This document shows positions 4,768 to 49,272 of a stretch of DNA of 64,000 nucleotides, piece after piece. Location of the stretch: contig JAUWMT010000008.1 of NCBI GenBank assembly GCA_030613025.1, positions 3,318 to 67,317 on the forward strand, read 5' to 3'. Position 1 is the first letter of the stretch. Every line of letters begins with the position of its first letter. The notes under the pieces were generated by a model. The model saw only the letters and a list, made by a program, of their open reading frames with translations, had not been told where the DNA came from and did not search any database. Position numbers and translations under genes: made by a program. This stretch comes from Candidatus Cloacimonadota bacterium (GTDB taxonomy: Bacteria > Cloacimonadota > Cloacimonadia > JGIOTU-2).

Positions 4768-4801
4768 AGATACACCAAAAGCTCTTTTACCCTTATCAAT
4801 T

Positions 4802-6529: not shown

Positions 6530-8221
6530 ATGCATACGCAGGGAGCACGTATGAAAAAAGTAGTCTTGTTTTTCACACTCATTATATTTTTATTCTCCGC
6601 TCAATCATTACTCGCGCAGGATAATATAGCCACCGGCAGCATTCAACCTTCAGAACTTTTACCTGGTGGGAAGGGTATGATCACAGTGACCTTCACTATT
6701 CCGGAAGGAATGCATCAAAGCTTGCAGGAAGACTATTTCTATATCGAAGCTGAAGAAGTAGAAGGTATTGAATTTTCACACACTCAATATCCCGAAGGTA
6801 TCGAAGAAGACAGTTTGATAAATTATTACGAGTCCGTAATTTTGCAGCAGGAATTCACCCTCTCAAAAGATTTTCCTGCAGATGCGTATGAGCTTTTGGT
6901 CTATGCCGGCTACCAGTTCTGTGAAAACTCTGGAATGTGCTATTTTCCGGAAGAGGAGGAGCTTGTACTTACTTTTGCCGTCCAAGGTGTGCAAAGTGTG
7001 ATCTCTGCAATGGAGACGCTCCAGACAGATTCAAAAACTGAAGTAGAAACATCGCCTGAGATTGAGTTCACAGAGATCAAAAGTAAGCTTGATGGATTTG
7101 TCATGACAGACATTGCTGCCGGGTATCTGAAAAGCAAGGATTTTATCTTGTTTGCAGAAGATGCAAAAACAGCGGATGGTTCGTCCGCAAATAGATTTGC
7201 AGGAATGAGTATCTGGCTGATACTGCTTCTGATTGTTGTCGGGGGTATTGCACTTAATCTCACTCCCTGTGTTCTTCCTATGATGCCCATAACCATTGCA
7301 GTGCTTGGAGCCGGCACACAGGCGGAATCCAGAGGAAAGGGTTTTTTGATCGGTAGTGTATATGGAATCGGTATGATGCTTGCCTATGGCTGTCTCGGTT
7401 TGATCGTAGTGCTCACCGGTTCACGATTCGGTGAGATTAATTCCTCGCCCTGGTTCAATATAATAATTGCAATTATTTTTATCCTGCTTGCTCTTGCCAT
7501 GTTTGATGTGTTCCCTATAGATTTTACAAAATTCCAGTCCGGCAAGATGGCTGGTAAGAAAACAGGAAAGGGAAAATATATTACAGTATTTGTGCTGGGT
7601 ATTATCGCCGCATTGCTTGCCGGTGCATGTGTTGCTCCTGTCCTTATTTCGGTAATTCTGTATTCGGTAACTTTATATACTTCGGGAAATCCTGCCGGTT
7701 TGCTGCTTCCATTCCTGCTTGGTGCTGGTATGGCATTGCCGTGGCCCTTTGTCGGCGCCGGACTTTCGATCCTTCCCAAACCGGGAAAATGGATGCAGTG
7801 GATCAAATATATCTTTGGTGTGATCATACTGGTTATTGCGCTTCTTTATGGCTACACAGCAGTTTCAATTTTTAAAACACAATCCCAGCCGGTGGTGTAC
7901 GAGCACACAGACGAAAGTACGACCGAAGAAACCGACCTTGTCTGGATGCCTTCTTTGATAGATGGTCTTGAAAGAGCAAAAGAAGAAGACAAACCGGTTC
8001 TCATTGATTTCTGGGCAACTTGGTGCAAGAACTGTCTTGTAATGGAAGCAACTACATTTAAAGATGATAGGGTTGAAGAGGTTTTGAAAGATTTTGTTCT
8101 TGTACGGTATCAGGCAGAGGATTTGAACAAATCCCCGACAAAAGAGATACTCGATCATTTTGGTGTGCTTGGACTTCCATCTTATGTCGTACTTATACCT
8201 AACTCGGATAAACCTGAATAA
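6530..8221 (+). CDS. dsbD: Thiol:disulfide interchange protein DsbD-like: N-terminal domain, cytochrome-c-biogenesis-type transmembrane core and C-terminal thioredoxin domain.
   Basis: Signal peptide (more likely from the second ATG at 6551, MKKVVLFF), multiple TM helices with conserved Cys (LTPCVLPMMP), C-terminal WATWCKNC thioredoxin motif. Confidence 0.8.
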   Translation: MHTQGARMKKVVLFFTLIIFLFSAQSLLAQDNIATGSIQPSELLPGGKGMITVTFTIPEGMHQSLQEDYFYIEAEEVEGIEFSHTQYPEGIEEDSLINYYESVILQQEFTLSKDFPADAYELLVYAGYQFCENSGMCYFPEEEELVLTFAVQGVQSVISAMETLQTDSKTEVETSPEIEFTEIKSKLDGFVMTDIAAGYLKSKDFILFAEDAKTADGSSANRFAGMSIWLILLLIVVGGIALNLTPCVLPMMPITIAVLGAGTQAESRGKGFLIGSVYGIGMMLAYGCLGLIVVLTGSRFGEINSSPWFNIIIAIIFILLALAMFDVFPIDFTKFQSGKMAGKKTGKGKYITVFVLGIIAALLAGACVAPVLISVILYSVTLYTSGNPAGLLLPFLLGAGMALPWPFVGAGLSILPKPGKWMQWIKYIFGVIILVIALLYGYTAVSIFKTQSQPVVYEHTDESTTEETDLVWMPSLIDGLERAKEEDKPVLIDFWATWCKNCLVMEATTFKDDRVEEVLKDFVLVRYQAEDLNKSPTKEILDHFGVLGLPSYVVLIPNSDKPE

Positions 8222-8225
8222 ATAT

Positions 8226-8278
8226 AACCACGAATTAACACGAATGCACACGAAAGCACCCGAATGAAAAAATTAAGC
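8226..8278 (+). repeat. Period-10 tandem repeat (xxCACGAAx, 4 copies) followed by AAAAAATTAAG, directly after the dsbD stop codon.
   Basis: aaccacgaat taacacgaat gcacacgaaa gcacccgaat gaaaaaattaagc read directly. The same motif family recurs at 14633-14672 and 17531-17572. Confidence 0.85.
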
Positions 8279-8464
8279 ATAAAAAATTATCTTTGTGAAT
8301 CCTCTATAATAAAGAGGTTACAGAGACTTGAGGTAATATTTTGCCAAAAAAATATTCTTAATTTTTCCTTTACATCTTTGCGTCTTTGCGAGAATCTTTG
8401 TTTTCACGTCCGTCGGCTGATTGGAATCCTAAGTACCTAAATAATTTTTAAGAGGTTTAAAAAT

Positions 8465-10350: not shown

Positions 10351-10358
10351 AGGTACTT

Positions 10359-11789: not shown

Positions 11790-11803
11790 TGGGAGGAGCA
11801 TAA

Positions 11804-12543: not shown

Positions 12544-14628
12544 ATGCGTTTTAAACTTGGACTATTGATATCAATGTTACTGATATTTAGCGGATTTTCA
12601 ACATTGTATGGAAATCAGAAAATATTAACCCCGCAGCTTGAGCAGAAGTTGCAAGAGAGTACTCAGGATGAATTAATACCTATCAATATAGTGATGAAGC
12701 AGCAGTATGATCATCAGGATTTGTTGCAGCAAAGTAACTTTTTACCTAGTTCGGAAAGAAGAGATTTTGTAATTCAGGAATTGAAATCCTTTACTGATAT
12801 CCATCAGCAGGATCTTCTTTATGATCTGGAGAACTTATCCTATAATGATATTGTGCAGGATATCCAGCCCTTGTGGGTTTCGAATGTCATAACCTGTAAG
12901 GCAACATCGGAGGTCATATATGATCTTATTCAAAGAAATGATATTGACTTTATTGATCATGATGAGGTCCGCAATATGCTGATGTTTGAAAAAGAAAATT
13001 CCTATAATCCAACCTCCCGTGAGATCACATGGAATGTGATCAAGGTCAATGCAGATGATGTATGGAATCTTGGCTATACTGGGAGCGGAGTAACTGTTGC
13101 TGTGATCGATACCGGCGTGAACTATAACCATGTTGATCTTGCAGATCATCTCTGGACTGATCCCGGTTACCCAAATCATGGCTGGGATTTTCGTTTCAAT
13201 GACAACAATCCTATGGATGATCACGGACATGGCACACATTGTGCGGGAACAGTTGCCGGAGACGGAACTGCCGGCTCTCAGACAGGTGTTGCTCCTGATG
13301 CGGAGATCATGTGCCTGAAAGTACTCGATAGTGGTGGAAGCGGCTCTGAGTCCGGTGTGTGGAGCGCGATCCAGTTTGCTATCGATAATGGAGCAGATAT
13401 AATGAGCATGTCCCTGGGCTGGCTTCATGCATGGGGACCGAACAGAGTAACGTGGCGGAATACCATGAATACAGCTTTGGCTGCAGGTGTCGTTGCATCT
13501 GTTGCAGCAGGCAATGAGGGAGATCAGCAGTATATGTATCAAATCCCTGATAATGTCCGTACTCCCGGAGATTGTCCTCCCCCCTGGCTTCATCCCGACC
13601 AAACACTGACAGGTGGTATAAGCTCGGTTGTTTGTGTTGGTGCCACCAACTCCGGTGATGGAATTTCGGGCTTTTCCGCTCGAGGTCCTGTCACATGGCA
13701 GAGCATTTCCGGATTCAATGATTATGCATATAGCCCCGGAATGGGTTTGATACGTCCTGATGTAGTTGCGCCCGGATCTAATATTAAATCTTTAGCCCAT
13801 TATAGTAACTACGGATATGAAAACGGCTGGAGCGGAACATCTATGGCTACACCCTGTGCTGCAGGAGTCATGGCTCTGATGCTTTCAAAAAATCCCAATA
13901 TAGCTCCTCCCCAGATCGACCAGATCCTCGAAGAAACTGCCCTTCCTCTGGCAACTTCAAAGAGCAACACTTATGGTTCGGGAAGAGTGGATGCGCTGGA
14001 AGCAATAAACCAGGTTCCATTCCCAAGTCCGGTCATGAATTTTTATCCTGACAGTCTTGATTTCGGTCCTGTACAGATCGGTTATGACTCCACCCTGCAA
14101 TTCTATATTGAAAATGTAGGCGGAGATACTCTGCGTGGAATTATCATATCACCTGAAGGATATTCCGTTGCACAGGATGGTTTAAAAGAACCCGGAAGAA
14201 ATACTGTCGAATTTGCAGTTCCATCAGGCAACACTGATACTTACAATCTTACTTTCACTCCCACAAATGTTCAATCCTATGACGGACAGGTCAGGATCAG
14301 TCAATACCCATTTTATAACTTCTTTCTTGATGTCTATGGCGAAGGATATCCTGAAGTGGGCAATGAGCCCGACCTCAACTTTAATGCGATAATTGAACAT
14401 TTTCCAAATCCTGTAAGAACTACTCTGACAATTCATTATGCTCTTGGTCAACAAAATACCGATCTGCCAATTGCGATCTATAATATTAAAGGTGAGTTCG
14501 TAACGGAAATTCAGGGAAGTAACGGCTTTGCACATCTCGACGCAACAAACATGAACGATGGTGTGTATTTATACAAAATTCAAAATAGTGAAACAACTTA
14601 TATTGATAAATTCATTATAATAAAATAA
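12544..14628 (+). CDS. Subtilisin-like (S8) serine protease with N-terminal propeptide and T9SS C-terminal sorting domain.
   Basis: Catalytic-triad motifs VAVIDTGV (Asp), HGTHCAGT (His), GTSMATPCAAG (Ser). C-terminal FPNPVRTTLTIHYAL...IAIYNIKGEFV...GVYLYKIQN. Confidence 0.85.
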   Translation: MRFKLGLLISMLLIFSGFSTLYGNQKILTPQLEQKLQESTQDELIPINIVMKQQYDHQDLLQQSNFLPSSERRDFVIQELKSFTDIHQQDLLYDLENLSYNDIVQDIQPLWVSNVITCKATSEVIYDLIQRNDIDFIDHDEVRNMLMFEKENSYNPTSREITWNVIKVNADDVWNLGYTGSGVTVAVIDTGVNYNHVDLADHLWTDPGYPNHGWDFRFNDNNPMDDHGHGTHCAGTVAGDGTAGSQTGVAPDAEIMCLKVLDSGGSGSESGVWSAIQFAIDNGADIMSMSLGWLHAWGPNRVTWRNTMNTALAAGVVASVAAGNEGDQQYMYQIPDNVRTPGDCPPPWLHPDQTLTGGISSVVCVGATNSGDGISGFSARGPVTWQSISGFNDYAYSPGMGLIRPDVVAPGSNIKSLAHYSNYGYENGWSGTSMATPCAAGVMALMLSKNPNIAPPQIDQILEETALPLATSKSNTYGSGRVDALEAINQVPFPSPVMNFYPDSLDFGPVQIGYDSTLQFYIENVGGDTLRGIIISPEGYSVAQDGLKEPGRNTVEFAVPSGNTDTYNLTFTPTNVQSYDGQVRISQYPFYNFFLDVYGEGYPEVGNEPDLNFNAIIEHFPNPVRTTLTIHYALGQQNTDLPIAIYNIKGEFVTEIQGSNGFAHLDATNMNDGVYLYKIQNSETTYIDKFIIIK

Positions 14629-14672: not shown

Positions 14673-14888
14673 AGTTTTGCAGAATATTTTTATTAAAATC
14701 AATTTTCGTGTTTTTTGTAGTTAGAAATTTTTATATGGAGGTGGCTGAATAGTCAAAACATTGATTGAGGATGATAGCAAAAGCAGTTCCATAATTAAAA
14801 GATGAAATAAAAATTACTTTGACATTTAAATTTTGACATTTTATTTGTCATTAGTAATTTGGATTTAGAAATTATTTTAAAGGTTAAT

Positions 14889-17498
14889 ATGATCATGAAG
14901 AAAAAAAGAACAAAAATATTTGCTATTGCGTTGATATGTGTTGCAATTCTAGCAGTTGTGCTCATTTCCGTTCATAAACCAGCTCTAAAAGGCAAACCTG
15001 CAGAACGCTGGGTGGAGAGACCTCACGGCGAAAAAGTAAAGAAAGAACCGGATGTGCTTCCTAATGAATGGATGGCATATCAACGTGTATATCCCTATAA
15101 TAAGATCAAGCTTGAGAACTATCTCAAAGGTATTGAAGATGCACAAAAACTGCATGAGGGGTCCTCTCAATATAGATATAACTGGGAACTTGTCGGTCCA
15201 ACTAATATCGGTGGACGGATTACCGATCTTGCTATTGACCCGACTGATCTCAATAAATACTATGTGGGAGCAGCATCAGGCGGTGTGTATAAAACCATAA
15301 ACGGCGGTGCAAGCTGGGAAAATATCTTCACGGATGTACCTGTTATCTCAATTGGAGATATTGAAGTCGATCCTAATGATGGGAATACACTTTATGTTGG
15401 AACAGGCGAAGCGAATGCTTCGAGTTATAGTTTTTTGGGAAACGGAATGTATAAATCTACAAATGGCGGATTGTCCTGGGATCATATTGGACTTGACGAA
15501 TCAGGATACGTCGGAAGAATTATTGTGGATTATAACAATTCCCAGAGAGTATTCGTTGCTGCTTGCGGAAATTTGTTTTCAGCGAATCCGGAACGTGGTG
15601 TATATCGCAGCGATGATGGGGGACAAACCTGGGTTAGAAAGCTATTTATCACAGATTCTACAGCCGCAGTTGATTTGGTTCAACATCCTACAAATCCGGA
15701 CATTTTGTACGCTGCTATGTGGGAGCGTATGAGGGGTTTGAATTACAGACGCTCATTTGGTTTGAGTTCCGGAATTTGGAAATCAGAAAATGGCGGGGAT
15801 ACTTGGACTGAGCTGACGAATGGCTTACCTACAGGAAACGATGTCGGCAGAATTGGTCTGGCAATTGCAAAATCTAATCCGAACAGACTCTATGCCTTTT
15901 ATGATAGAACGAATCAGATTGATGTCTTTAAAACAAATGATGGCGGAAACAGTTGGACTGCTACGAATGATGGTGCGCTGCAGGGAATCAACAGCACCTT
16001 TGGCTGGTATTTTGGGCAAATTCGGGTTGACCCGAATGATCAAGACCGGGCGTATGTGATGGGAGTATATCTCTACCACACGACAAATGGAGGTTCAAGC
16101 TGGAGCCAGATCGGCAGCAACATCCACGTTGATCATCATGCAATGTATATTGATGAAGTCACAGGATTTATAATTGAAGGAAATGATGGCGGTCTTTATA
16201 CAAGCTCAAATTCCGGCACATCCTGGACAAAAATCAATAATCTTCCAATGACCCAGTTCTATGCAATTGAGATCGATCAAACCTACCCATACAGAATTTA
16301 CGGCGGCACACAGGACAATAATACTATTCGAACTCTCACTGGAGCACTCAATGATTGGGAACCAATTCTGGGCGGAGACGGATTCTACTGCATTGTAGAT
16401 TACACTGATCCTAATACTATATTTGCAGAATATCAATGGGGCAATTTGTATAGATCTACAAATGGCGGTTATAGTTTTAATTATATTTCCTATCCAATGA
16501 GCGGAGACAGAACGAACTGGTCATCACCTTATGTGATGCATCCTATCAATCCTGATATTCTCTACTTTGGTACTTACCGAATTTGGAAAACTACGAATGG
16601 TGGTTCGGGCTGGAATGCGGTCAGCGGAGATCTTACTCAAGGTGATGATGGAAGCAGTTATCACACTATTTCTACAATAGCAATTTCGAAACTCAATCCA
16701 GGTCTTATTCTTGCAGGCAGCGATGATGGAAGAGTTCACATTTCTCATAATAATGGAAGTTCATGGATAGATATTTCTACAGGATTACCGGATCGCTGGA
16801 TAACCAGAGTTGCTTTTGATCATCATGATGCAAATACTATTTATGCAACTGTTTCGGGATTTCGCTGGGATGAGGAAGCTCCTCACGTCTTCAAGTCCAC
16901 CAATCTTGGAATGGACTGGTTGAATATAAGCGGAAATCTTCCTGAAATTCCTGTGAACTGCATTGCTGTTGATCCTAATATTCCGAATAAGTTATTTGTA
17001 GGAACGGACTCCGGCGTATTCTTCTCTGAAGATGGAGGACAGAACTGGTATGGACTTTCTCAAGGGCTTCCAAATGTTCCTGTTACAGATATGAAGATCT
17101 ACAATCCAGATCGATTTATGGTCATCGGAACCTACGGCTGTTCCGCTTATAAGATCGATCTTGATGACATTATTGTTAGTAATGATCCGGAACCGGAAGA
17201 GCAAGTATTTGTGAAGCTTTATCAGAATTATCCAAATCCGATTTCATTGACAGCGCATACTTCAACTCAAATCGGTTTCTCACTTGGTACAGCTGGGAAT
17301 GTAGATATTTCTATCTACAATATAAAAGGGCAGAAGATCAAAACTATTCTGAATACTCAAATGGCAGCTGGTGATCATACTGCGCAATGGAATGGCACTG
17401 ATGAGTTAGAACAATCTGTCTCCACCGGCATCTATCTCTATAAATTATCAGTAAATGGCAATGTAAAACAAATAAAACGATGTACGGTTATTAAATAG
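14889..17498 (+). CDS. BNR/Asp-box repeat protein (sortilin/Vps10- or glycosidase-like beta-propeller) with T9SS C-terminal sorting domain.
   Basis: At least 10 Asp-box motifs (STNGGLSWD, SDDGGQTWV, SENGGDTWT, TNDGGNSWT, TTNGGSSWS, etc.). C-terminal LYQNYPNPISLT...ISIYNIKGQKI...GIYLYKLSV. The track ORF starts at a TTG at 14859; the in-frame ATG at 14889 was used. Confidence 0.8.
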   Translation: MIMKKKRTKIFAIALICVAILAVVLISVHKPALKGKPAERWVERPHGEKVKKEPDVLPNEWMAYQRVYPYNKIKLENYLKGIEDAQKLHEGSSQYRYNWELVGPTNIGGRITDLAIDPTDLNKYYVGAASGGVYKTINGGASWENIFTDVPVISIGDIEVDPNDGNTLYVGTGEANASSYSFLGNGMYKSTNGGLSWDHIGLDESGYVGRIIVDYNNSQRVFVAACGNLFSANPERGVYRSDDGGQTWVRKLFITDSTAAVDLVQHPTNPDILYAAMWERMRGLNYRRSFGLSSGIWKSENGGDTWTELTNGLPTGNDVGRIGLAIAKSNPNRLYAFYDRTNQIDVFKTNDGGNSWTATNDGALQGINSTFGWYFGQIRVDPNDQDRAYVMGVYLYHTTNGGSSWSQIGSNIHVDHHAMYIDEVTGFIIEGNDGGLYTSSNSGTSWTKINNLPMTQFYAIEIDQTYPYRIYGGTQDNNTIRTLTGALNDWEPILGGDGFYCIVDYTDPNTIFAEYQWGNLYRSTNGGYSFNYISYPMSGDRTNWSSPYVMHPINPDILYFGTYRIWKTTNGGSGWNAVSGDLTQGDDGSSYHTISTIAISKLNPGLILAGSDDGRVHISHNNGSSWIDISTGLPDRWITRVAFDHHDANTIYATVSGFRWDEEAPHVFKSTNLGMDWLNISGNLPEIPVNCIAVDPNIPNKLFVGTDSGVFFSEDGGQNWYGLSQGLPNVPVTDMKIYNPDRFMVIGTYGCSAYKIDLDDIIVSNDPEPEEQVFVKLYQNYPNPISLTAHTSTQIGFSLGTAGNVDISIYNIKGQKIKTILNTQMAAGDHTAQWNGTDELEQSVSTGIYLYKLSVNGNVKQIKRCTVIK

Positions 17499-20882: not shown

Positions 20883-22208
20883 ATGATAAAATATCAAGAA
20901 GCGATTGATACAATAATTTGGTCATTACCTTTTAAAAGGCTTGGAGGGAAAACACAAGTTTTTGTAAAAGGAATTCAAGATCACCATCGTGATAGACTCA
21001 CACATACTATTGAAGTAATGAATCTCTCAGAGAAACTGGCAGATGAGATTAACAAGAAAAATAAGAAGAAAAAGAAGAAAAAAATCGATATCGATTTATG
21101 TAAGGCTATTGCGCTTGCACATGATTTAGGGCATACACCTTTCGGCCATGCAGGGGAGGAAGCTTTACATATTGCACTATCAAATATTATAATTTTAGGA
21201 TGCAATAATATAAAAGGCTTACAAGGTTTTAATCATTATGAACAGGGGCTCGATGTAGTTTCATATATGTATTCAAAAGATACAACCAATAGTGGCAAGG
21301 GTTTATTTAAAAAAAATGTAAATAAAGAAATATGTAAAGGTATACTTCAGCATACATATTTTATAAATGGTTGCAAGTCAAAAGAAAATGCTGGTTTAAA
21401 TTATTTAATAAAAAACACCAAATATATAAAAATTATAACTAAAAAAGCAAAAAACCCATCTACTGAAGCCCAAATTGTAAGAATTTGTGACAAGATAGCG
21501 TTCATGATTTCCGATCTTGAAGACGGATTTATAGTAAATGCTATATCCATCTCAGATTTAAAAAAAATATCTCATAATTCTCATAATAATTTATTTAAAC
21601 AATTAAAAAAAGAAAACTTTGATTTTTCTGAACATAGAAGCTTTTTACGATGTCGAGAAAAAATTATAAAGCGATTGATTCAAGGTTGTGAAATAAGTGA
21701 TGATAAAATTAAATGTAAGCAGTCAGAGGTTATGGATGAGGTATATAAGGATATACAGGAAGGAATAATCTTTAAAAATTACTACGTTAAGAATGGTACT
21801 GAAAAAGGAAAATTAATTGTGAGTTGTTTATTCTGCCAATATTTGAGAAATCCAGAACTTATTGGGTTTCAATCATTTAGGTACAAATATCATGATCAAA
21901 GCCAGAGCTTTGATTGTAAAGAAGTTTCAAGTAAAATATCTTTTTACTCAAAATTAGAGGGTCATTATAATTTTTCTAATAATCAGGAAGTTCAAATTTA
22001 TTTATCTAAATGGTTCAAAATTAATAACTGTAGCGGCACAAACGTAGAGCAGGATTTTAAAAGGAATATTGTTGATGTTATTTGCGCTAAGGATTGGGTT
22101 GCAAGTTTAACCGATAGATATGCTGAAGAGTGTTATCATGAGCATGTTAATTGTTGGAAAAGTAAAGAGAAGTGGAAAAGATTAAATAGTACAGAAAATA
22201 TAAACTAA
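20883..22208 (+). CDS. dGTP triphosphohydrolase-like HD-domain protein with a poly-Lys insertion.
   Basis: HD motifs HDRDRLTHTIEV...ALAHDLGHTPFGHAGEE match the dGTPase family. The NKKNKKKKKKKID insertion is encoded by an A-rich tract at 21055-21090. The track ORF starts at a TTG at 20871; the ATG at 20883 was used. Confidence 0.65.
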   Translation: MIKYQEAIDTIIWSLPFKRLGGKTQVFVKGIQDHHRDRLTHTIEVMNLSEKLADEINKKNKKKKKKKIDIDLCKAIALAHDLGHTPFGHAGEEALHIALSNIIILGCNNIKGLQGFNHYEQGLDVVSYMYSKDTTNSGKGLFKKNVNKEICKGILQHTYFINGCKSKENAGLNYLIKNTKYIKIITKKAKNPSTEAQIVRICDKIAFMISDLEDGFIVNAISISDLKKISHNSHNNLFKQLKKENFDFSEHRSFLRCREKIIKRLIQGCEISDDKIKCKQSEVMDEVYKDIQEGIIFKNYYVKNGTEKGKLIVSCLFCQYLRNPELIGFQSFRYKYHDQSQSFDCKEVSSKISFYSKLEGHYNFSNNQEVQIYLSKWFKINNCSGTNVEQDFKRNIVDVICAKDWVASLTDRYAEECYHEHVNCWKSKEKWKRLNSTENIN

Positions 22209-22425
22209 AATAAAAAATTTATTAAAGAGAAGAATTTATCAATACAATTTTTATCTATTTTGATAGAAGAACAGCGCACAACAAAGCATATAAGCTGCGT
22301 CGCTTCGCTCCTTGGCCTACGGCACATTTTGCTTTCATTTCATTACAGCAAAACGTCTCATATACTAACCGTTATATGAAAAAATTAAAAATTGTATTTT
22401 GGTTGTATGTATCCTTTGATAGGTT

Positions 22426-22707
22426 GTGAGAGAGGGTGATCTGATAAATATGAAGGTGCATTTTATTGATGTGAGGGAAGGGGACGCGATATTAGTACAG
22501 TATGAGGGGGAGAATTATTTGATCGACTCGGGGCGGAATTTGAGCTCGAACCAGCTGATTACTTATGTTGATTCGGTGGGGTTGCTGCTTACAGGGGAAA
22601 GCGAAACAGAAAATAACCAGTACCTTTTAGATGAATATGATCTTGATGTGGAAGTTTTGAAGGTTTCTCATCATGGAGCTTTTTACTCGTTCCTATCCGT
22701 CAGCTGA
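22426..22707 (+). pseudogene. Remnant of a ComEC/Rec2-type metallo-beta-lactamase-fold gene (internally deleted fragment).
   Basis: MKVHFIDVREGDAILVQ...LIDSGRN resembles the first strands of the ComEC C-terminal MBL domain, and ...LKVSHHGA resembles its later HHGS motif, but about 150 aa in between are missing. No proper start codon. The ORF ends inside a 36-bp palindrome. Confidence 0.4.
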
Positions 22708-22721
22708 CGGATAGGAACGAG
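22686..22721. repeat. Perfect 36-bp palindrome CTCGTTCCTATCCGTCAG|CTGACGGATAGGAACGAG.
   Basis: Verified base by base. The centre is CAGCTG. It overlaps the stop of the MBL remnant and is not followed by a T-run. Confidence 0.95.
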
Positions 22722-22890
22722 GTGTTAAAGAATCAGAAGAAAATCTGTGGCTGATTAAGGGTAATAAGCCCTCAAAAATCATCGTTTTTCCTATTGGATT
22801 GGGTCAAATTTCGCAATAAATTAATTGCAGAAAAATTTGACAACATTTTGTAGGAATTTCGAATGAAAAAAATAAATTCAGGAGGTGCAG

Positions 22891-24813
22891 ATGAAAAAAA
22901 TAGCTGTACTCTTATTTTTCTTGCTTCTCTCAACAACTGCTTTTGCTGCTTATCAGGTAGGGGATGTTGTTTCGAATTTTAGCTGGACTGATAACACCGG
23001 AACGTCACATACGATCTACGATCTCATCGACGCTGAAAAGGCGATCGTGTTTTTCTGGGGAGGTGCTGGTTGAGGTGGCTGTGTAGCGGCGGCGCCGCAA
23101 TTAGAAACTATCTGGCAAAACTACCAGGGAACAGGTCATTGCTATATTCTATCAGAAAACAATTGGACTTCCTATGGAGCAACTTATTATTATTCTTATG
23201 ATATCGATCCATACTATGGTCAATATGGAAATGGTTACATTCCGTATTTTGCTGTTATTGGTGGTGAGTATAAAGTGTTTTATACAAGTACTGGTGTGAG
23301 CGGTGTAAGCGCTGGACTTGATGCTGCGATCGCATCTCTAGGATTATATGCAAACTTTACTGCTAATATTACCCAGGGACCTCCGGAACTTACTGTGCAA
23401 TTCACAAGTACATCTTCTGGAAGCCCCGACACGTGGGAATGGGACTTCAATAATGATGATACGATTGACAGCCATGAAGAAAATCCTGTCTGGACGTACA
23501 CAGCAGTCGGTTCTTACGATGTTTCTCTTACTGTATTTGAAGGAGCTGATAGCGATGAACTCATACAAGAGGACTTTATCACTGTGTTAAGTCCCACAAA
23601 TATCTCCGGTCAACTCGCAGGAACGTGGTCACCCATTTATGGAACGTACACTATTACAGGAGATGTAACTGTTCCTGTAGGTACAGTTCTCTCGATTGAA
23701 CCAAGTACAAACATTGTCGCGAATAATAACAGCAAGATCCAGATTAATGGAAGAATTGAGGCACAAGGCTCTGAACGTGGATTGGTAAATTTCTCAACAG
23801 ACGATCAATGGAAAGGTATCAAGATCATTGATAGCCAGGAAGATAATTTGATCGATTATTGCTATTTTACGGGCTCAACAGAAAGTGCAGTGGATATTGA
23901 TAATTCAACTGTCGATGTGCTGAACAGCACTTTTTATGAGAATACAAACACCTCTCAAAAAGGACCTGCTATCAATGTGTTGGATGCAAGTGATGTACTT
24001 ATAGAAGGCAATGTTATTGCAAATAATTACAGCTCGGTGCTCACCGGTGGTATTGGACTTGATAATTCAGCTTGTGTGATCTCACACAATATCATTGTGA
24101 ATAACGAAGCAAACTTTGCAGGTGCGATCGGCATGAAGAATGGTTCTGATACATCACTTATCAATAATACAATTGCGAATAACCTGGCTAACTATGCGTG
24201 CATTTACATGCTTTCTTCCTATCCGAATGTGCTTAACACGATCATTATTCATGACGGTTTGATCTTCACAACCTTTAGCAGTAATCCAATTGTTAACTAT
24301 TCTTGTATCTCAGGCGGATATTCCGGAACAGGTAATATCAGCGATGATCCGCAGTTTGTGGATCCCACTGCTGGAGATGGAAATGCGTATAATGGCTTGA
24401 TTGCGTACTGGAGTTTGCAGTCAACTTCCCCATGTATCGATACCGGCGATCCTTCCTCACCTCCTGATCCAGATGGAACGATTGCAGATATGGGTGCGTT
24501 GTACTATCATCAGCAGGTTTCAAATGACGATCCTCATAGTAATATGATCTATGTCATGCAGAATTCACCAAATCCATTCAAGGGTTCTACTTCAATATCT
24601 TATTCTTTGCCGAAAAATTCTGAGAATGCTATTATCACTATCTATAACATAAAGGGTGACATGATAAAAGAATTCACACTTGATGATTCTGAAGGTGAGA
24701 TCGTGTGGAACGGGTTTGATCAGAATAATAAAGCAGTCGCAAGCGGAGTTTATTTCTATAGACTACAAGGAGATTCCATTTCCCGGACCAGATCAATGGT
24801 CTTCATGAAATAA
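22891..24813 (+). CDS. Candidate selenoprotein of 640 aa: signal peptide, TlpA-like redoxin with UxxC active site, PKD-like domain, parallel beta-helix repeats and T9SS C-terminal sorting domain. The in-frame TGA at 23071-23073 is read as Sec.
   Basis: Track ORFs 22885..23073 and 23275..24813 are in the same frame. I translated the 200-nt gap by eye and found no other stop. Context AIVFFWGGAG-TGA-GGCV parallels the redoxin FWASWCxPC active site. A GC-rich hairpin lies 12 nt after the TGA. The gene is followed immediately by selC, selA and selB. C-terminal MQNSPNPFKGSTSISYSL...ITIYNIKGDMIKEF...GVYFYRLQ is a T9SS tail. Confidence 0.55.
23086..23098 (+). promoter_or_regulatory. SECIS-like hairpin GCGGC-GGC-GCCGC, 12 nt downstream of the in-frame UGA.
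   Basis: Self-complementary GC-rich 13-mer in otherwise AT-rich DNA. The spacing from the UGA matches the usual bacterial SECIS position. Confidence 0.45.
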
Positions 24814-24844
24814 CGTATTTCAAAAAAATAGAATAGCTTTCGGT

Positions 24845-24939
24845 TGAGAGGAAGGAACTGGTGTTCCAGCTGGTCTTCAAAATCAGTAGTGTGCGGATAA
24901 CACCGTTCATGGCAGGTTCGATTCCTGCCCTCTCGGCCA
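24845..24939 (+). tRNA. selC: tRNA-Sec (selC-like), anticodon UCA. Boundaries approximate (+/- 3 nt).
   Basis: Anticodon stem-loop GCTGGT-CTTCAAA-ATCAGT (24869-24887) with anticodon TCA. D-arm GGAAC-TGGT-GTTCC. Long extra arm. T-arm GCAGG-TTCGATT-CCTGC. 3' CCTCTCG-G-CCA pairs with 5' (T)GAGAGG. About 95 nt long. Sits between the selenoprotein gene and selA. Confidence 0.65.
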
Positions 24940-24966
24940 TTTTTTTATTTAAAAATAGGATATAAA

Positions 24967-26352
24967 ATGGATAAGAACGAACTTAAAAAAATTCCCGGAG
25001 TGGATACATTGATGAAGAACTCCGCAATCAAAAACCTCATTTCTGAATTTGGTGAAAATCTTACAGTTTTCTCGATCAGGCAAGTACTAAGTGATATTAG
25101 AGACTCAGTTCTTAAAGGAAAAAAAATTCCATCTGATGATAGAATGCTCACACTAATAAAGCAAAGAGTATATCATATTGGAATATGCTCATTAAAGCCA
25201 ATGATCAATGCGACGGGTGTTGTACTGCATACAAATCTTGGACGTGCCCCTTTGGGTTCTGCACTCACGGAAGAGGTTGCAAAAATAATTGGGGGGTATT
25301 CAAATCTTGAGTTCGATCTTGAAAAGGGGAAGCGGGGTCACAGAGAAGACCATATTACTGATCTTATTACTTTTATTACAGGCGCAGAAGATGCAGTTGT
25401 AGTAAATAATAATGCTGCCGGCGTTTATCTGTCGCTAAAAACCTTTTGTGAAAACAAGGAAGTAGTAATTTCACGAGGTGAGCTTATTGAGATCGGCGGC
25501 TCATTCCGAATACCGGACATCATACAGCAGAGCGGTGCAAAAATGGTGGAAGTCGGTACAACAAACAGGACACGGATCTCAAATTATGAAGCAGCGCTCA
25601 CGGAAGAAACTACGGTATTATTCAAAGCTCATAAATCCAATTATTATATTCAGGGATTTTCCGAAGAAGTAGAGATCGAAGCATTGGCTGAACTGGCTCA
25701 TGCTCATGGACTTGTTTGCATCTATGATTTGGGATCAGGACTGCTGCGTAAGCCGAAAGGGTTACCTCTGAACACAGAGCCGGATGTTATATCTGCACTA
25801 CAGTCAGGAGCGGATCTCGTGATGTTCAGTTGTGATAAACTGCTCGGCGGTCCTCAATCGGGCATTATTGCCGGAAAAAAGAAGTACATCCAAAAATTGA
25901 GGAAGTCGCCGCTTATGCGTGTGCTTCGTGTGGGTAAAATGACCCTTGCAGCACTTTCTACAGTGCTCCGCTGCTATTTGAAAGATGAAACTCTTCTTGA
26001 AAACGTACCTGTTTTTCGCATGCTGGATCAGACAAAAGATGAGCTTCGAGAAAAAGCAGAAAAATTCTCCGAACTCCTGAAAAAAGAGAAGATTTCCAAT
26101 AAGATTATTAAGAATACTGCACGTTGCGGTGGGGGAACTCTTCCGCAGGTTGAAATTTCCAGCTATGCAGTACAGCTCGGTCTTACAAAAACTAAGATTT
26201 CTCCCGAGCAGCTATATCATAAATTGCTACAATTAGATAAACCGATCCTTGGCATTCTCAGAGAAGGTTCGTTACTTTTTGATATGTTTACTCTTGGTAA
26301 AGTTCAGACAACCGAAATTGCAAAGCAGATCAAGAAAATGATCCAAACATAA
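24967..26352 (+). CDS. selA: L-seryl-tRNA(Sec) selenium transferase.
   Basis: Strong match to SelA signatures: INATGVVLHTNLGRAPL, ITGAEDAVVVNNNAAGV, SRGELIEIGGSFRIPD, KAHKSNY, FSCDKLLGGPQSGII, KMTLAAL. Confidence 0.9.
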   Translation: MDKNELKKIPGVDTLMKNSAIKNLISEFGENLTVFSIRQVLSDIRDSVLKGKKIPSDDRMLTLIKQRVYHIGICSLKPMINATGVVLHTNLGRAPLGSALTEEVAKIIGGYSNLEFDLEKGKRGHREDHITDLITFITGAEDAVVVNNNAAGVYLSLKTFCENKEVVISRGELIEIGGSFRIPDIIQQSGAKMVEVGTTNRTRISNYEAALTEETTVLFKAHKSNYYIQGFSEEVEIEALAELAHAHGLVCIYDLGSGLLRKPKGLPLNTEPDVISALQSGADLVMFSCDKLLGGPQSGIIAGKKKYIQKLRKSPLMRVLRVGKMTLAALSTVLRCYLKDETLLENVPVFRMLDQTKDELREKAEKFSELLKKEKISNKIIKNTARCGGGTLPQVEISSYAVQLGLTKTKISPEQLYHKLLQLDKPILGILREGSLLFDMFTLGKVQTTEIAKQIKKMIQT

Positions 26353-26353: not shown

Positions 26354-28291
26354 ATGAAACATTTGATAATGGGCACAGCCGGTCATGTTGACCACGGGAA
26401 AACTGCGCTCATAAAAGCACTTACAAATTTTGATTGCGATACGCACAAAGACGAAAAGCAGCGCGGAATAACGATCCATCTCGGCTTTACACACCTCGAT
26501 CTGCCAAATGAGAACAGCATTGGCATTATCGATGTACCCGGGCATAAAGATTTTATCAATACTATGATCTCAGGCGCCAGTACCATTGATTTTGTGCTTT
26601 TTACAATTGCTGCAGACAGCAGTATCATGCCGCAAACAAGGGAGCATCTGCACATCATGGAGTTACTTGGGATCAAGAACGGCATAATTGCTCTCACAAA
26701 AAGTGATACGGTCGATGAAGAAATTTTAGAACTCGTTGAACTTGAGATAAGTGAATTCGTTTCCGGCACTTTCCTGGAAAATGCACCAATTATCAGAACT
26801 TCAGTCAAAGATAATACCGGCATCGAGGAGTTGTTGCGGGAACTGGAAAAAGTTACAGAACACATTGAGCAGCGTTCGGGCGGATGTTTTTTCAGAATGT
26901 ATATCGATAGAATATTCAGTGTGCAGGGATTTGGGACAGTGATCAACGGGTCTGTATTGCAGGGAAAAGCAACGAAAACGACTCCATTATATTTGCTTCC
27001 AGTAAACAAAGAGTTGCGGATCAGAAAGCTCGAACACCACGGGCAGGAAGTTCAAGAAATATATTCAGGACAGAGGGCTTCTCTTAACGTGGTCGGATTA
27101 GATATTCAGGATTTCACAAGGGGAATGCTGGTTTCTGAGAGGGTGATCAAGCCAACAAAAATAATCGATGCAGAACTCACTTTGTTTGAACACGAGAGAA
27201 CATTGGAGGTATGGAATCATGCACTCTTTCTTATGGGAACTTTTGAAGACCAGGCAAGAATACATCTGCTCGATAAGGACATTTTGCAGAGTGGAGAGAC
27301 CGGACTGGTACAGATCCATTTTGAAAAAGAGTGTTTTCCCATTTTTGGAGACTCTTTTATCATAAGAAGTACTTCTAGCGATATCACACTTGGTGGTGGA
27401 AAGATTCTCGATGCATATCCTCTTCATCATAAAAAGAGAACTCACAAGGTAATTCAACATCTTCAGCTTATTGCAAGCGGCGGTTTGCCTGCATTTCTGG
27501 CAGCAGAAGTGAGAAAACAACCCCACGCAGTTTCTCTTGCATACCTGGCTGAAATATCTAACAAAACCGACAAAGAGCTTCTTGAGATCATTAGAAAATC
27601 ATTTCCTGAAGATATTGAAACAAGGGAGTTTAACAAAGAATTGTTGCTCATCACACGCTGCATGATTGACCTTATACGAGCAGAAATAATTAAACTCCTT
27701 ACCGCTCATCATAAAGAAAATCCACTCATCAAAAAAGGAAAAACTTTCGATGAAATGTGCAGTATGTTGAATATGAAAAATGCCAATGACAGTACGCTAT
27801 TGGGAATACTATTAGAAGAAATGGTTCGGGATAACCAGCTTGCCAAAGTTAATGGAACTTTTGCCCTTTTAGATAGGGCAGTCACACTTTCGCATGAGGA
27901 AATGCAGAAGATTGAAAAAGTAGATCAGTACTTGCTGAATTTCGGAATGAAAGTGCCGATGATAAATGAGATAAGAGCATTTGCAGAAGGCGAGCAGATC
28001 TCGTCAAAAGAGTTGAATAATATCCTCAGCTATCTTATCGAAAATAAAAAAGTCTTAACAATTGAGGGTTCGTTCATTCATGCTGAGATCATAAAAAAAG
28101 CGGAGAAGGTTTTGTTGCAGCATTTCAAGAAAAATGACAAGCTGATCCTTGCTGATTTTCGTGACCAGTTACAAGCAAACAGAAAGATCTGCCTGCTGCT
28201 TCTCTCCTATTTTGATGATAAGGGATGGACGGTTCGTAAAGGGGATTATCGTATATTATCCGAAAAAGGAAAACAATTATTGAGCAGATAG
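26354..28291 (+). CDS. selB: Selenocysteine-specific elongation factor SelB.
   Basis: N-terminal GTPase motifs [23 protein letters not shown], then an EF-Tu-like beta-barrel and extended C-terminal winged-helix region. About 645 aa, typical of SelB. Confidence 0.9.
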   Translation: MKHLIMGTAGHVDHGKTALIKALTNFDCDTHKDEKQRGITIHLGFTHLDLPNENSIGIIDVPGHKDFINTMISGASTIDFVLFTIAADSSIMPQTREHLHIMELLGIKNGIIALTKSDTVDEEILELVELEISEFVSGTFLENAPIIRTSVKDNTGIEELLRELEKVTEHIEQRSGGCFFRMYIDRIFSVQGFGTVINGSVLQGKATKTTPLYLLPVNKELRIRKLEHHGQEVQEIYSGQRASLNVVGLDIQDFTRGMLVSERVIKPTKIIDAELTLFEHERTLEVWNHALFLMGTFEDQARIHLLDKDILQSGETGLVQIHFEKECFPIFGDSFIIRSTSSDITLGGGKILDAYPLHHKKRTHKVIQHLQLIASGGLPAFLAAEVRKQPHAVSLAYLAEISNKTDKELLEIIRKSFPEDIETREFNKELLLITRCMIDLIRAEIIKLLTAHHKENPLIKKGKTFDEMCSMLNMKNANDSTLLGILLEEMVRDNQLAKVNGTFALLDRAVTLSHEEMQKIEKVDQYLLNFGMKVPMINEIRAFAEGEQISSKELNNILSYLIENKKVLTIEGSFIHAEIIKKAEKVLLQHFKKNDKLILADFRDQLQANRKICLLLLSYFDDKGWTVRKGDYRILSEKGKQLLSR

Positions 28292-47073: not shown

Positions 47074-49272
47074 ATGAAGCCAATTTATCTCGACTATAAT
47101 GCAACGACACCTCTCGCACCGGAAGTGGCGGAAGCAATGAAGCCATATCTGGAAAATTATTTTGGCAATCCGTCGAGCGCTCACTGGTACGGAGTGCAGA
47201 CAAAAAAGGCAGTTGAAAACGCACGCAGGCAGGTTGCGGAACTTATTAATGCAAATCCAGATGAGATCATTTTTACAAGCGGGGGTTCGGAATCCAATAA
47301 TTTTGCAATAAAGGGGATCGCCTTTGTAAAGAGATCGCAGGGAAACCATATCATTACTTCGTCTGTAGAACATCCTGCAGTTATCGAAGTATGCGAGTAT
47401 CTCAAAACACAGGGATTTGAAATAAGCTATCTGCCAGTTGACGAATACGGAATGGTCGATCCAAATGATGTAGAAAAGGCGATCACTCCGCAGACAATAC
47501 TTATCACAATAATGCATGCAAATAATGAAGTTGGCACTATTCAGCCAGTAAGAGAAATTGCTGAGATCGCACATGTTCATGATATTATTATGCATACTGA
47601 CGCAGCCCAGTCCACAGGAAAAATTCCTGTTCTAATTGATGAGCTTGGCGTTGATCTGCTTTCCATTGCCGGTCATAAACTGTATGGACCGAAAGGGATA
47701 GGTGCACTCTATATTCGAAGAGGAGTGAAACTACAAAAGATCATTCACGGCGCAGATCATGAACAAAATTTACGAGCCGGCACAGAAAATATTTTATGTG
47801 ATGTCGGTCTGGGAAAAGCATGCGAAATAGCAGGTCAAAATTTACAGAAAAATATACAGCACATGAAAGAAATGAGGGATCTGCTTCATAAAAAAATTGA
47901 AGCTTCGGGGCTTGATTTCAGATTGAACGGTCACCCTGAAAAAAGATTACCGAACACACTCAGTCTTTCCTTCAGAAATGTGGAAGCAAATACTGTTCTT
48001 TCCGAGCTAACAGAGGTTGCGGCATCAGCAGGCGCGGCATGTCATTCCGACCAGATCGATGTGTCTACTGTACTGGAAGCAATGAAAGTACCTCTAGAAT
48101 ATGCAATGGGGACGATACGTTTTTCCACCGGTCGATTTACTACGAAAGCAGAGATAGAACAAGCTGCAGATAAGATCATAAAAGTTATCAGTAAATTTCA
48201 GGATAAAAAAGTAGAAATACCTCAACAGGATGATGCTGAGATCAAGCTCACACATTTTACTCACGGCATGGGCTGTGCTTGCAAGATAGAACCGGCTCTG
48301 CTGGAGGAAATTCTAAAAAAACTTCCAATTCCTGACGATCCTGATATTTTGGTTGGCACACAAACGTCTGACGATGCTGCCGTTTACCGGATAAATGATG
48401 AAACTGCGCTTGTAGTTACGTTGGATTTTTTCACACCAATTGCTGACGATCCTTATGAATTTGGTGCTATTGCTGCAGCAAATGCGCTAAGTGATGTTTA
48501 TGCAATGGGTGCAACTCCTTTATTCGGATTGAACATTGTCGGATTTCCCTCAAACAGATTACCTATGTCCGTATTGGAAAAAATTCTAAATGGAGCACAG
48601 GATAAAGCTCGGGAAGCAGGTATTTTCGTAATCGGCGGTCATACGATCGAGGATACAGAGCCCAAATATGGAATGGTTGTAGTCGGGCAAGTTCAGCCAA
48701 AAAAGATCTGGAAGAATGTCGGGTTGCAGAAAGATGATGTGCTTATTTTCACCAAACCCATTGGAACGGGCATTCTTTCAACTGCATTAAAAAGAGGTTT
48801 ACTCGATGAAACGCAAAAGGACTTGTTGATCTCATCAATGACAGAATTGAATAAAAAAGCTGCAAATGTACTTCAAAATTATCCGGTTCATGCATGTACT
48901 GACGTAACAGGTTTCGGACTTCTCGGGCATCTTATGGAGATGGTGCAGGGTAGCAAAGTTGCTGTTGAGATCAAAGCTGACAATGTTCCCATTCTTGATG
49001 GTGCTCTTGAATTTGCAGCCGGCAACGTCATACCGGGTGGAACGCTGTCCAATATGAAATTTGTCGAGGATATTGTTGAGTGGAGTTCAAATATTTCTCA
49101 GATCCAGAAAATCATACTGTGCGATGCTCAGACATCAGGAGGTTTGCTCGCTGCAGTTCCGGAAAAGGAATCGCAAAAGGTGCTGAAGTCATTGCATGAT
49201 TCCGGAATCACTCATGCATGTATGATAGGAAAAGTCATAGGAAGTGGTTCTGAGCTCATCAAAGTAACCTGA
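47074..49272 (+). CDS. selD: Fusion protein: NifS/IscS-like cysteine (selenocysteine) desulfurase joined to selenophosphate synthetase SelD.
   Basis: N-terminal class-V aminotransferase domain ([37 protein letters not shown] with PLP-Lys, AGACHSD). C-terminal SelD domain (LTHFTHGMGCACKIEP matches SelD LTQYSHGAGCGCKISP; later DAAV...D..LVVTLDFFTP, GGHT). 732 aa. Confidence 0.85.
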   Translation: MKPIYLDYNATTPLAPEVAEAMKPYLENYFGNPSSAHWYGVQTKKAVENARRQVAELINANPDEIIFTSGGSESNNFAIKGIAFVKRSQGNHIITSSVEHPAVIEVCEYLKTQGFEISYLPVDEYGMVDPNDVEKAITPQTILITIMHANNEVGTIQPVREIAEIAHVHDIIMHTDAAQSTGKIPVLIDELGVDLLSIAGHKLYGPKGIGALYIRRGVKLQKIIHGADHEQNLRAGTENILCDVGLGKACEIAGQNLQKNIQHMKEMRDLLHKKIEASGLDFRLNGHPEKRLPNTLSLSFRNVEANTVLSELTEVAASAGAACHSDQIDVSTVLEAMKVPLEYAMGTIRFSTGRFTTKAEIEQAADKIIKVISKFQDKKVEIPQQDDAEIKLTHFTHGMGCACKIEPALLEEILKKLPIPDDPDILVGTQTSDDAAVYRINDETALVVTLDFFTPIADDPYEFGAIAAANALSDVYAMGATPLFGLNIVGFPSNRLPMSVLEKILNGAQDKAREAGIFVIGGHTIEDTEPKYGMVVVGQVQPKKIWKNVGLQKDDVLIFTKPIGTGILSTALKRGLLDETQKDLLISSMTELNKKAANVLQNYPVHACTDVTGFGLLGHLMEMVQGSKVAVEIKADNVPILDGALEFAAGNVIPGGTLSNMKFVEDIVEWSSNISQIQKIILCDAQTSGGLLAAVPEKESQKVLKSLHDSGITHACMIGKVIGSGSELIKVT

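Follow-up and report, generated by a model that had tools for sequence, protein, structure and literature searches.

A Cloacimonadota gene predicted to encode a surface-exported selenocysteine redoxin

Introduction

Periplasmic formate dehydrogenase and [NiFeSe] hydrogenase are exported bacterial selenoproteins. A TonB-dependent receptor of the FCYXU type and a selenobacteriocin appear in Table 1 of a 2026 inventory (PMC13188914), and the entries of that table with selenocysteine (Sec, U) in a UxxC site include a peroxiredoxin (Prx)-like thiol:disulfide oxidoreductase (PF00578), a thiol-disulfide isomerase-like/TlpA protein (cd02966) and Redoxin (PF08534). Among predicted bacterial selenoproteins, those with a UxxC site in a thioredoxin fold form the commonest kind, and the catalytic idea is already known. 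Here, a gene at 22891-24813 (+) was analysed in a 64,000-nt stretch of DNA (hereafter the window) from a Candidatus (Ca.) Cloacimonadota bacterium (assembly GCA_030613025.1, contig JAUWMT010000008.1, positions 3,318 to 67,317 of the forward strand). Judged by comparison with its relatives, it is almost certainly a selenoprotein gene, with one UGA codon decoded as Sec in an N-terminal redoxin domain, and its product is probably secreted to the cell surface by a Type IX secretion system (T9SS).

Like the UxxC selenoproteins tabulated in PMC13188914, the predicted protein has Sec for the N-terminal Cys of CxxC, a probable TlpA/ResA/redoxin-like fold, a selenocysteine insertion sequence (SECIS) just downstream, Cys homologues and a presumed redox function. 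Apparently unlike the families listed there, the redoxin is the N-terminal module of a putatively secreted multidomain protein with PKD, beta-helix and T9SS domain or dockerin, and Sec forms vastly outnumber Cys forms. With TlpA, ResA and CcmG (PDB 4nmu, 3c71, 3hcz) it shares a predicted thioredoxin fold behind a signal peptide, a site of the F/W-W-x-x-W-C-x-x-C type, a conserved Pro four residues past the second Cys, a cis-Pro loop GY[IV]P and an association with DsbD-type genes. These classical proteins are small, periplasmic or membrane-anchored and Cys-using, whereas the window family has Sec, a 3-residue G-rich spacer before Sec and fused surface-display modules.

Type A cargo of the T9SS (TIGR04183; gingipains, surface enzymes of Bacteroidota and Fibrobacter) likewise combines a Sec-pathway signal peptide, a sorting domain of ~75 residues and modular PKD, Ig and beta-helix passenger domains; the selenocysteine, together with the uncharacterised T9SS of the host phylum, distinguishes the present protein from known cargo. 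As in formate dehydrogenase, [NiFeSe] hydrogenase, the FCYXU receptor and the selenobacteriocin, a Sec protein would be exported beyond the cytoplasm. Those proteins differ in fold, in chemistry (metal ligands or peptide) and in route (twin-arginine translocation, Tat; beta-barrel assembly machinery, BAM), and none of them is a surface thiol oxidoreductase.

A literature search returned no paper on T9SS (type IX) or dockerin cargo with selenocysteine, nor on Cloacimonadota selenoproteins, and no paper or curated model describing the Sec-redoxin family was found. In PMC13188914 no mention of T9SS, sorting domains or dockerins was found, and Haft's selenoprotein preprint likewise gave none for secretion or for sorting domains. 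None of the NCBIfam models picks up the redoxin domain with its motif context FWG-x-x-x-U-[GPSD]-[GSA]-C-x-x-A-A-P; as GenBank names cover fragments only and no paper matched, the family was classed as new. What is new about this selenoprotein family, which extends across the phylum, is its architecture and presumed location, and large automated screens may already list it under a generic "redoxin" label. Selenoproteins have nearly always been seen as cytoplasmic or periplasmic, and a selenol at the surface, or docked to a cellulosome-like complex, would widen the range of selenium chemistry. A family model with Sec in the active site would repair annotation across a phylum that dominates many anaerobic digesters.

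Reading frame and conservation of the UGA codon

Two mechanically called open reading frames (ORFs; 22885..23073 and 23275..24813, +) lie in the same frame, and a sequence-only reading of the window had joined them to one 640-codon ORF interrupted by a single TGA. Translation of 22891-24813 confirmed this: 640 sense codons with one internal stop (TGA 23071-23073) were obtained, ending in TAA. The internal stop is flanked by IVFFWGGAG on one side and GGCVAAAPQLETIW on the other, and with Sec decoded the active-site stretch becomes IVFFWGGAG-U-GGC-VAAAPQL, just as that reading had described it. The true start is ATG 22891; its AGGAGG Shine-Dalgarno sequence is kept in the close orthologues L007 and L008, as is the TGA. 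A promoter and terminator scan of 22200-25100 gave chance-level, uninformative results. A full-length frame like that of the window gene is present in 30 or more related loci (features are collected in Table 1).

At the Sec codon, TGA was found in 28 distinct aligned sequences as well as in L031b and L042, and TGC in L031 and L045. The ~30 distinct TGA-bearing sequences belong to Cloacimonadota plus one Ca. Delongbacteria, with identity down to ~40%. The contigs of the first database matches, from Ca. Celaenobacter antarcticus and two Joint Genome Institute (JGI) metagenomes, carry the same TGA. When one genome per species was scanned, nine loci were obtained, all from Cloacimonadota metagenome-assembled genomes (MAGs); TGA is present in 9/9, and the frame is open through it to the T9SS tail, at N-terminal-domain identities down to 46%. 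In 23 of 24 further metagenome loci TGA occupies the same codon (identity down to about 38-42%). The remaining one, L031, has TGC in a CGGC motif and encodes a full-length protein of 660 residues, and the gene directly after it is a Sec-form paralogue. An exhaustive HMMER search with the part of the domain after the TGA gave a second full-length Cys form (P0113/L045, 523 aa, FWGEDW-C-GGC) and eleven C-terminal fragments called from internal starts. A word-indexed search with the N-terminal domain, Sec replaced by Cys, found three C-terminal fragments only, and a protein search with the L031 Cys form found one fragment; neither returned a full-length Cys homologue. The comparison of orthologues that had been proposed along with the first description of the gene therefore shows the TGA kept, no frameshift or gene split at the Sec codon, and two rare Cys homologues.

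In a profile search of 5.8 billion proteins, 103 clusters of the redoxin family were recovered, 94 of them with fewer than 100 residues and ending three residues past the FWG motif, right before the Sec position. The fragments to which a source gives a name are "hypothetical proteins" from Cloacimonetes MAGs and, in one case, from Ca. Delongbacteria; at the latter locus, too, the frame runs on through TGA (U-GSC), and the resulting protein of 595 residues has a T9SS tail. Sec forms make up about 100 clusters and Cys forms 2, and this near-exclusive use of Sec suggests that selenium is functionally required, not merely tolerated. The databases hold ~100 non-redundant entries of ~60 residues (P0005-P0107) that are N-terminal stumps of the family, and C-terminal parts called from internal GTG/ATG starts, one of them named "PKD domain-containing protein".

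Such annotation would also arise if the gene encoded no selenoprotein, that is, if the TGA were a real stop or a sequencing error separating a 60-residue peptide from another gene or a pseudogene, or were read as Trp, Gly or Cys. GenBank and gene callers do give a 60-residue "hypothetical protein" and a "PKD domain-containing protein", and one paralogue has a frameshift. Against this stand the retention of TGA in independent assemblies, the absence of a start codon or ribosome-binding site directly past it, a predicted thioredoxin fold that spans it, the existence of Cys homologues, a covarying hairpin present only together with TGA, and the complete Sec machinery adjacent. Protein-level conservation runs on past the TGA, on both sides, down to ~40% identity; in 15 close orthologues, 90% of the codons for invariant amino acids vary synonymously on either side, so that both halves are under purifying selection as protein. 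Pseudogene, sequencing error and two independent genes were dismissed on these grounds. As TGA is the ordinary stop of 7/38 long ORFs in the window, the standard code applies and genome-wide UGA reassignment was rejected; no other credible candidate for TGA read-through was found in the 64-kb window. The comparative data effectively refute a non-selenoprotein explanation, which is extremely unlikely.

On the L031 contig (Ga0265594_1000173), the Cys form (CGGC, 2890-4873) and the Sec form (U-GAC, ~4954-6402) stand in tandem, as if Sec/Cys interconversion had been caught in progress after a duplication. In a second paralogue of Ca. Celaenobacter antarcticus (L014 ~4620 = L001-L006, L029), 1 nt is inserted within the PKD domain (GATAGTAGCAAG vs GATAGT-GCAAG). 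The same cut product is recorded from at least 24 contigs of different samples, and an intact orthologue exists in L015/L032.

SECIS hairpin

The self-complementary 13-mer that had been pointed out 12 nt after the TGA in AT-rich DNA, GCGGCGGCGCCGC at 23086-23098, was verified in both position (exactly 12 nt) and composition, the hairpin region being a 65% G+C peak in a window of 36% G+C. A weaker lower stem extends the hairpin to about 23079-23104. The 11-nt core CGGCGGCGCCG has a single site in the window, against 0.04 matches expected by chance; since the core is palindromic, it is matched again, with 1 mismatch, by the other strand at these coordinates. Folding gave -8.6 kcal/mol for the core alone and -9.9 kcal/mol with the lower stem. 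In the bacterial SECIS model of PMC13188914 (Fig. 2 legend), an apical loop of 3-9 nt with G in its first two positions sits on a stem of at least 4 bp, with 16-37 nt from UGA to loop and a minimum free energy of -7.5 kcal/mol or lower. The window element, with its GGC loop, 5-bp stem, 17-nt spacing and -9.9 kcal/mol, lies within this model. A Rfam scan at gathering thresholds reported tRNA-Sec only.

The evidence for the hairpin is comparative, and the natural contrast between Sec and Cys forms is its strongest argument. In the 28 distinct Sec-form sequences the core is identical with one exception, whereas flanking third-codon positions are free to vary. It encodes Ala-Ala-Pro as GCG GCG CCG, GCG being 11% of the Ala codons in the window, and these are among the very few codons that never vary in close orthologues. 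Pair 17-27 changes from C-G to A-U in L041 (GAGGC-GGC-GCCUC) and to U-A in the Delongbacteria gene (L042, GUGGC-GGC-GCCAC), and in L017 the outer stem pair changes from G-C to U-A. The Sec paralogue at L031 retains CGGC-GGU-GCCG despite different residues (A-T-A-V-P). Its Cys neighbour has AUGGC-AGC-GCCGG, with the loop G lost, the stem shortened and an energy of -2.8 kcal/mol, which on comparison is read as a decayed relic of the hairpin; in the P0113/L045 Cys form, A-A-P is encoded as GCT GCT CCT and no hairpin is left (0.0 kcal/mol). SECIS evolution can here be followed as a natural experiment: next to TGA the hairpin is invariant, and of the two TGC forms one has it degraded and the other lacks it.

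Downstream of the core, a stretch of 35-40 nt (23099-23135) that includes a second small hairpin, CUGGCAAAACUACCAG at 23112-23127, hardly changes at synonymous sites between close orthologues, a conservation that is absent from distant members. This stretch could be an extended SECIS, another mRNA structure or merely a sign of recent common ancestry.

Selenocysteine machinery

A tRNA-Sec-like gene, selA and selB had been recognised downstream by eye, and all were identified by ARAGORN, Rfam, TIGR00474 and TIGR00475. The tRNA-Sec was placed at 24845-24939 by ARAGORN and at 24842-24938 by Rfam RF01852 (56.8 bits vs a gathering score of 47), and starts ~30 nt past the stop codon of the selenoprotein gene (29 nt for 24842). 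In SelB, the SECIS-binding winged-helix domain SelB-wing_3 scored over the Pfam cut-off, whereas SelB-wing_2 was weak and below it. The order gene, tRNA-Sec, selA, selB is kept in ~20 loci, with SelA identity down to ~58%. The fourth component is encoded further downstream as part of a 732-residue fusion, so that selC, selA, selB and selD are all present in the window. Its SelD part, with the motif GMGCACK, belongs to the Cys and not to the Sec type, and supplies the selenium donor; the NifS-like class V aminotransferase part is possibly a selenocysteine lyase or a cysteine desulfurase.

Redoxin domain and active site

For domain scans of the window protein, U was replaced by C. The isolated domain reached 25.4 bits for Redoxin (cut-off 26.6) and 24.2 bits for AhpC-TSA (cut-off 26), with E about 1e-5. 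Pfam AhpC-TSA and Redoxin were matched by all six family members tested, and the relative L037 exceeded the Pfam cut-off for AhpC-TSA with 31.6 bits. A profile of twelve family members was run against all PDB sequences, and its top matches were thioredoxin-fold thiol-disulfide oxidoreductases only: 3hcz from Cytophaga hutchinsonii (E = 3.8e-5), 4fyu (E = 2.3e-4) and ResA 4nmu (E = 6.5e-4), followed by tryparedoxins and thioredoxins. The Sec column coincides with the first Cys of CxxC in every printed PDB alignment, and the alignment with 4fyu reaches the cis-Pro loop (GY[IV]P vs GIP). Residues invariant in the family include W37, G38, U42, C45, A48, A49, P50, W56 and P99 (mature-domain numbering); both U-x-x-C and P99 of G-Y-[IV]-P are thus invariant in the family alignment. 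That the TGA occupies the place of the active-site Cys had been claimed from the sequence and was borne out, Sec aligning with the N-terminal Cys of a ResA/TlpA-type CxxC. The assignment to a TlpA-like redoxin stood in part: the CxxC alignment agrees with it, whereas the Pfam match stays below cut-off in the window protein and rises above it only in the relative. The redoxin fold is weakly but consistently supported by these sequence matches.

Structure prediction of the Cys form P0113 was confident only in the C-terminal beta-sandwich (pLDDT, predicted local distance difference test, >90) and in redoxin strands 1-3; strands and helices in the low-confidence model follow the order expected for a thioredoxin fold. 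Foldseek of this model against PDB returned spurious multi-Ig matches only (TM ~0.12).

Whether the Sec-redoxin might instead be a surface peroxidase of the peroxiredoxin kind, detoxifying peroxides, was weighed on the same data. AhpC-TSA is the best Pfam family, the peroxiredoxin 5epf is among the top PDB matches, the hosts are strict anaerobes, and Sec peroxiredoxins are a known class of selenoprotein (PMC13188914). The peroxiredoxin signature PxxxTxxC/U is absent, however: FFWGGAG precedes Sec, with neither Pro at -7 nor Thr at -3, and the motif FWGGxG-U-x-x-C corresponds to that of TlpA, ResA and thioredoxin, in line with the alignment of Sec to the first Cys of CxxC throughout. Since PxxxTxxC is missing, a peroxiredoxin identity was rejected, the domain was read as TlpA/ResA-like, and a peroxidase is considered very unlikely. 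The favoured assignment, a Sec-redoxin domain acting as a thiol-disulfide oxidoreductase, is made from the motif and the alignments with moderate confidence.

Export signals and modular architecture

A signal peptide, a PKD domain, a beta-helix and a T9SS C-terminal domain had been read from the translated sequence, and each of them was recovered. On inspection, the signal peptide has KK in its n-region, a hydrophobic core and the motif A-x-A, a pattern kept in all homologues. The sorting domain was matched over residues 560-634 of 640 by TIGR04183 (29 bits vs 23) and PF18962 (Por_Secre_tail; 29.1 vs 27), and on the same residues FlgD_ig reached 31.1 bits against a cut-off of 27. The redoxin module is always N-terminal in the family, whereas the remaining modules vary and the proteins span 400-1070 residues. 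The arrangement of the window protein (PKD, beta-helix and C-terminal domain, ~640 residues) is accompanied by 1070-residue and 520-600-residue forms with other Ig-like/CarboxypepD_reg modules before the C-terminal domain, and by ~400-residue forms with a type I dockerin as their last module (Pfam Dockerin_1 over cut-off; L036-L038; P0015, P0112, P0122). In every architecture the terminal module is either a dockerin or a T9SS C-terminal domain. Three more window proteins have a T9SS C-terminal domain (11804-12535; an S8 peptidase, 12544-14628; 14859-17498).

A study of Ca. Stygibacter, a Cloacimonadota genus from Ace Lake, describes dockerin-bearing peptidases and glycosidases together with a cohesin scaffoldin whose anchor is a C-terminal domain of the T9SS type (Williams et al., PMC8542988). 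For the phylum as a whole, a review counts Cloacimonadota among those phyla of the Fibrobacterota-Chlorobiota-Bacteroidota (FCB) group that may have a T9SS (PMC11285876).

This guarded wording also suits a different explanation, in which the protein is a true selenoprotein kept in the periplasm or on the inward-facing outer membrane. The C-terminal beta-sandwich would then be an Ig-like module of the FlgD_ig type, no functional Type IX route would exist for the protein, and the redoxin would be a classical TlpA/ResA reduced by a DsbD-like protein. FlgD_ig does match the sorting-domain residues with a score as good as that of Por_Secre_tail, the recurrence of DsbD-like and ResA-like genes beside family members would fit a periplasmic relay, and none of the T9SS core genes (PorK/L/M/N, Sov/SprA, PorU, PorV, PorT) was found in the 64-kb window. 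On the other side, TIGR04183 and PF18962 are both over their curated cut-offs, the sequence shows NPNPF, GxYFY and K-x-x-x-K, motifs typical of type A C-terminal domains, a subtilase and a glycosylhydrolase-like protein of the window carry the same tail, and in relatives the tail is replaced by a dockerin, an extracellular assembly module. Retention in the periplasm is accordingly thought unlikely, and delivery of the Sec-redoxin protein as extracellular cargo, by T9SS or dockerin, is considered likely on the strength of these domains.

Proposed mechanism and points against it

SelB carrying Sec-tRNA(Sec) would bind the G/C hairpin with its GGC triloop 12 nt past the UGA and insert Sec at residue 61, a step that the sequence comparison supports. 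With Sec at the position of the attacking Cys, the U-x-x-C centre in its TlpA/ResA-like fold should cycle between selenol/thiol and selenenylsulfide. The signal peptide would direct the protein through the Sec translocon to the periplasm, where it would fold, and the type A C-terminal domain would then route it through Type IX secretion to the cell surface. There, the PKD and beta-helix modules may hold the redoxin against a substrate or the surface; in the dockerin relatives the redoxin would be plugged into a cellulosome-like complex or cohesin scaffold. The most likely role would be to reduce or rearrange disulfide, polysulfide or similar bonds in extracellular material, with disulfide-rich proteins ahead of co-secreted peptidases, or polysulfide and oxidants in sulfidic anoxic habitats, as possible substrates. 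Alternatively, the domain may shield the cell surface of these strict anaerobes from oxidants. The electrons could be supplied before export by a periplasmic pathway of the DsbD/ResA kind, or after it by ambient sulfide or thiols. A surface selenol raises the question which reductant acts outside the cell; a preference for Sec would, speculatively, fit a reaction at low substrate concentration or one without a dedicated reductase.

Besides the failure to find T9SS core genes in the window, several observations speak against this explanation. For the whole window protein, the AhpC-TSA/Redoxin match is weak (residues 22-81) and below both the Pfam and the NCBIfam cut-offs. P0113 modelled alone reached a pLDDT of 34.8, and with the fragment alignment a mean of 55.6. 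Single-sequence folding of 23060-23135 was not significant (z = -1.16), and over six 38-nt variants plus 23060-23135 the folding z ranged from about 0 to -1.5, no better than shuffled sequences. RNAalifold preferred a competing 5-bp helix, GCUGU/GCGGC, that shows no covariation; it was rejected, compensatory changes and loss in Cys forms being seen for the palindromic hairpin only. Covariation itself rests on few events: its score was reached by 11/500 shuffles and the fraction of paired cells by 5/500, modest statistics that follow from a core that does not vary. The claim that the region holds a SECIS-like hairpin is supported by the agreement with the published model, the nucleotide-level conservation and the covariation. 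The Ca. Celaenobacter paralogue with the 1-nt insertion may either be decaying or need frameshifting, and a surface reductase would work without an obvious electron donor.

A bolder extension was also considered, in which Cloacimonadota and at least one Delongbacteria lineage display a surface selenol for extracellular chalcogen chemistry, via T9SS tail or dockerin and with at least two unrelated UxxC families. More than an antioxidant, it would serve to reduce disulfide-locked proteins or polysulfide for feeding, or to capture selenium for the adjacent Sec machinery. This is a long shot; if true, bacteria would have a first system of secreted selenoenzymes, itself a candidate for a missing high-affinity step of selenium acquisition.

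Envelope redox genes and a second selenoprotein family

Table 1 Features of the window and of the second family. Positions refer to the window unless a locus is named; domain assignments are predictions
Feature	Position	Strand	Basis or remarks
Shine-Dalgarno AGGAGG	22880..22885	+	5 nt before ATG, read from sequence
Predicted selenoprotein gene	22891..24813	+	640 codons including one Sec codon, then TAA
Signal peptide MKKIAVLLFFLLLSTTAFA	22891..22947	+	by inspection; predicted signal peptidase I site between AFA and AY
Thioredoxin-fold (TlpA/ResA-like) redoxin domain, U-G-G-C active site	22948..23340	+	profile matches
Predicted UGA selenocysteine codon, residue 61	23071..23073	+	TGA conserved among orthologues
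Putative SECIS core hairpin GCGGC-GGC-GCCGC	23086..23098	+	5-bp stem, GGC triloop
PKD domain, residues 156-232	23356..23586	+	PKD_4 E = 1.6e-8, PKD E = 8.5e-8, both over cut-offs
Right-handed parallel beta-helix, residues 303-447	23797..24231	+	PF13229 E = 1.7e-8, 34.7 bits vs 25.9
T9SS type A C-terminal sorting domain	24568..24810	+	motifs NSPNPF ... GVYFYRL ... MVFMK
tRNA-Sec (selC), anticodon UCA	24842..24939	+	ARAGORN and Rfam RF01852
selA (selenocysteine synthase)	24967..26352	+	TIGR00474, E = 2.2e-163
selB (Sec-specific elongation factor)	26354..28291	+	TIGR00475, E = 1e-99
NifS-like aminotransferase-SelD fusion	47074..49272	+	Pfam Aminotran_5, AIRS and AIRS_C
DsbD-like membrane thiol-disulfide transporter with thioredoxin domain	6530..8221	+	Pfam DsbD_TM and Thioredoxin_7
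CxxC Omp28-like protein	8465-9544	+	
ResA-like + TonB_C	9544-10350	+	
DUF6029	10359-11789	+	
Second family, predicted Sec forms	L017 464-1759; L033 528-2726		
Second family, Cys forms	L028 5101-6411+; L017 1778-2986; window 8465-9544; L001 7302-8297+		

A set of redox genes, from the DsbD-like gene to DUF6029, lies 11-16 kb upstream of the selenoprotein gene, and the DsbD-like protein is a candidate for the supply of periplasmic reductant. A DsbD_TM-thioredoxin gene stands directly downstream of the Ca. Celaenobacter paralogues (L001/L014/L029) and 1.1 kb downstream of the family member in L039; downstream of the L045 Cys form, a TlpA-like redoxin and a DUF6029 gene are found. This recurrent linkage suggests that, during its time in the periplasm, the redoxin may receive its electrons from a DsbD-type relay. 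The genes belong to a recurring envelope redox cluster (window 6530-12535, +) that consists of DsbD_TM-thioredoxin, Omp28-like CxxC, ResA-like-TonB, DUF6029 and a small T9SS-tailed protein; parts of it adjoin family members in three other lineages (L001 5626-8297, L039 5592+, L045 4638-7572).

The Omp28-like protein of this cluster is a Cys form of a second, unrelated T9SS-tailed family, in which a Sec/Cys pair occupies an N-terminal Omp28-like CxxC domain (VVGEVFTSTT-U-SFC/GYC-P-x-AR). Its putative SECIS elements, GCUCG-GGC-CGGGC and GCCCG-GGC-CGGGU, are placed 15 nt past the UGA and have the same GGC triloop. A 5-bp G/C stem with a GGC triloop would be a SECIS typical of the lineage, its triloop design recurring in two unrelated families of the phylum. 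In L033, the second-family gene is located directly upstream of the main-family gene and selC-selA.

Elsewhere in the window, TIR-domain and SIR2-like proteins are encoded on the minus strand (33385-34491 and 39279-41381), with an M78 peptidase near (45296-46453, +). This region looks like an anti-phage defence islet unrelated to the selenoprotein.

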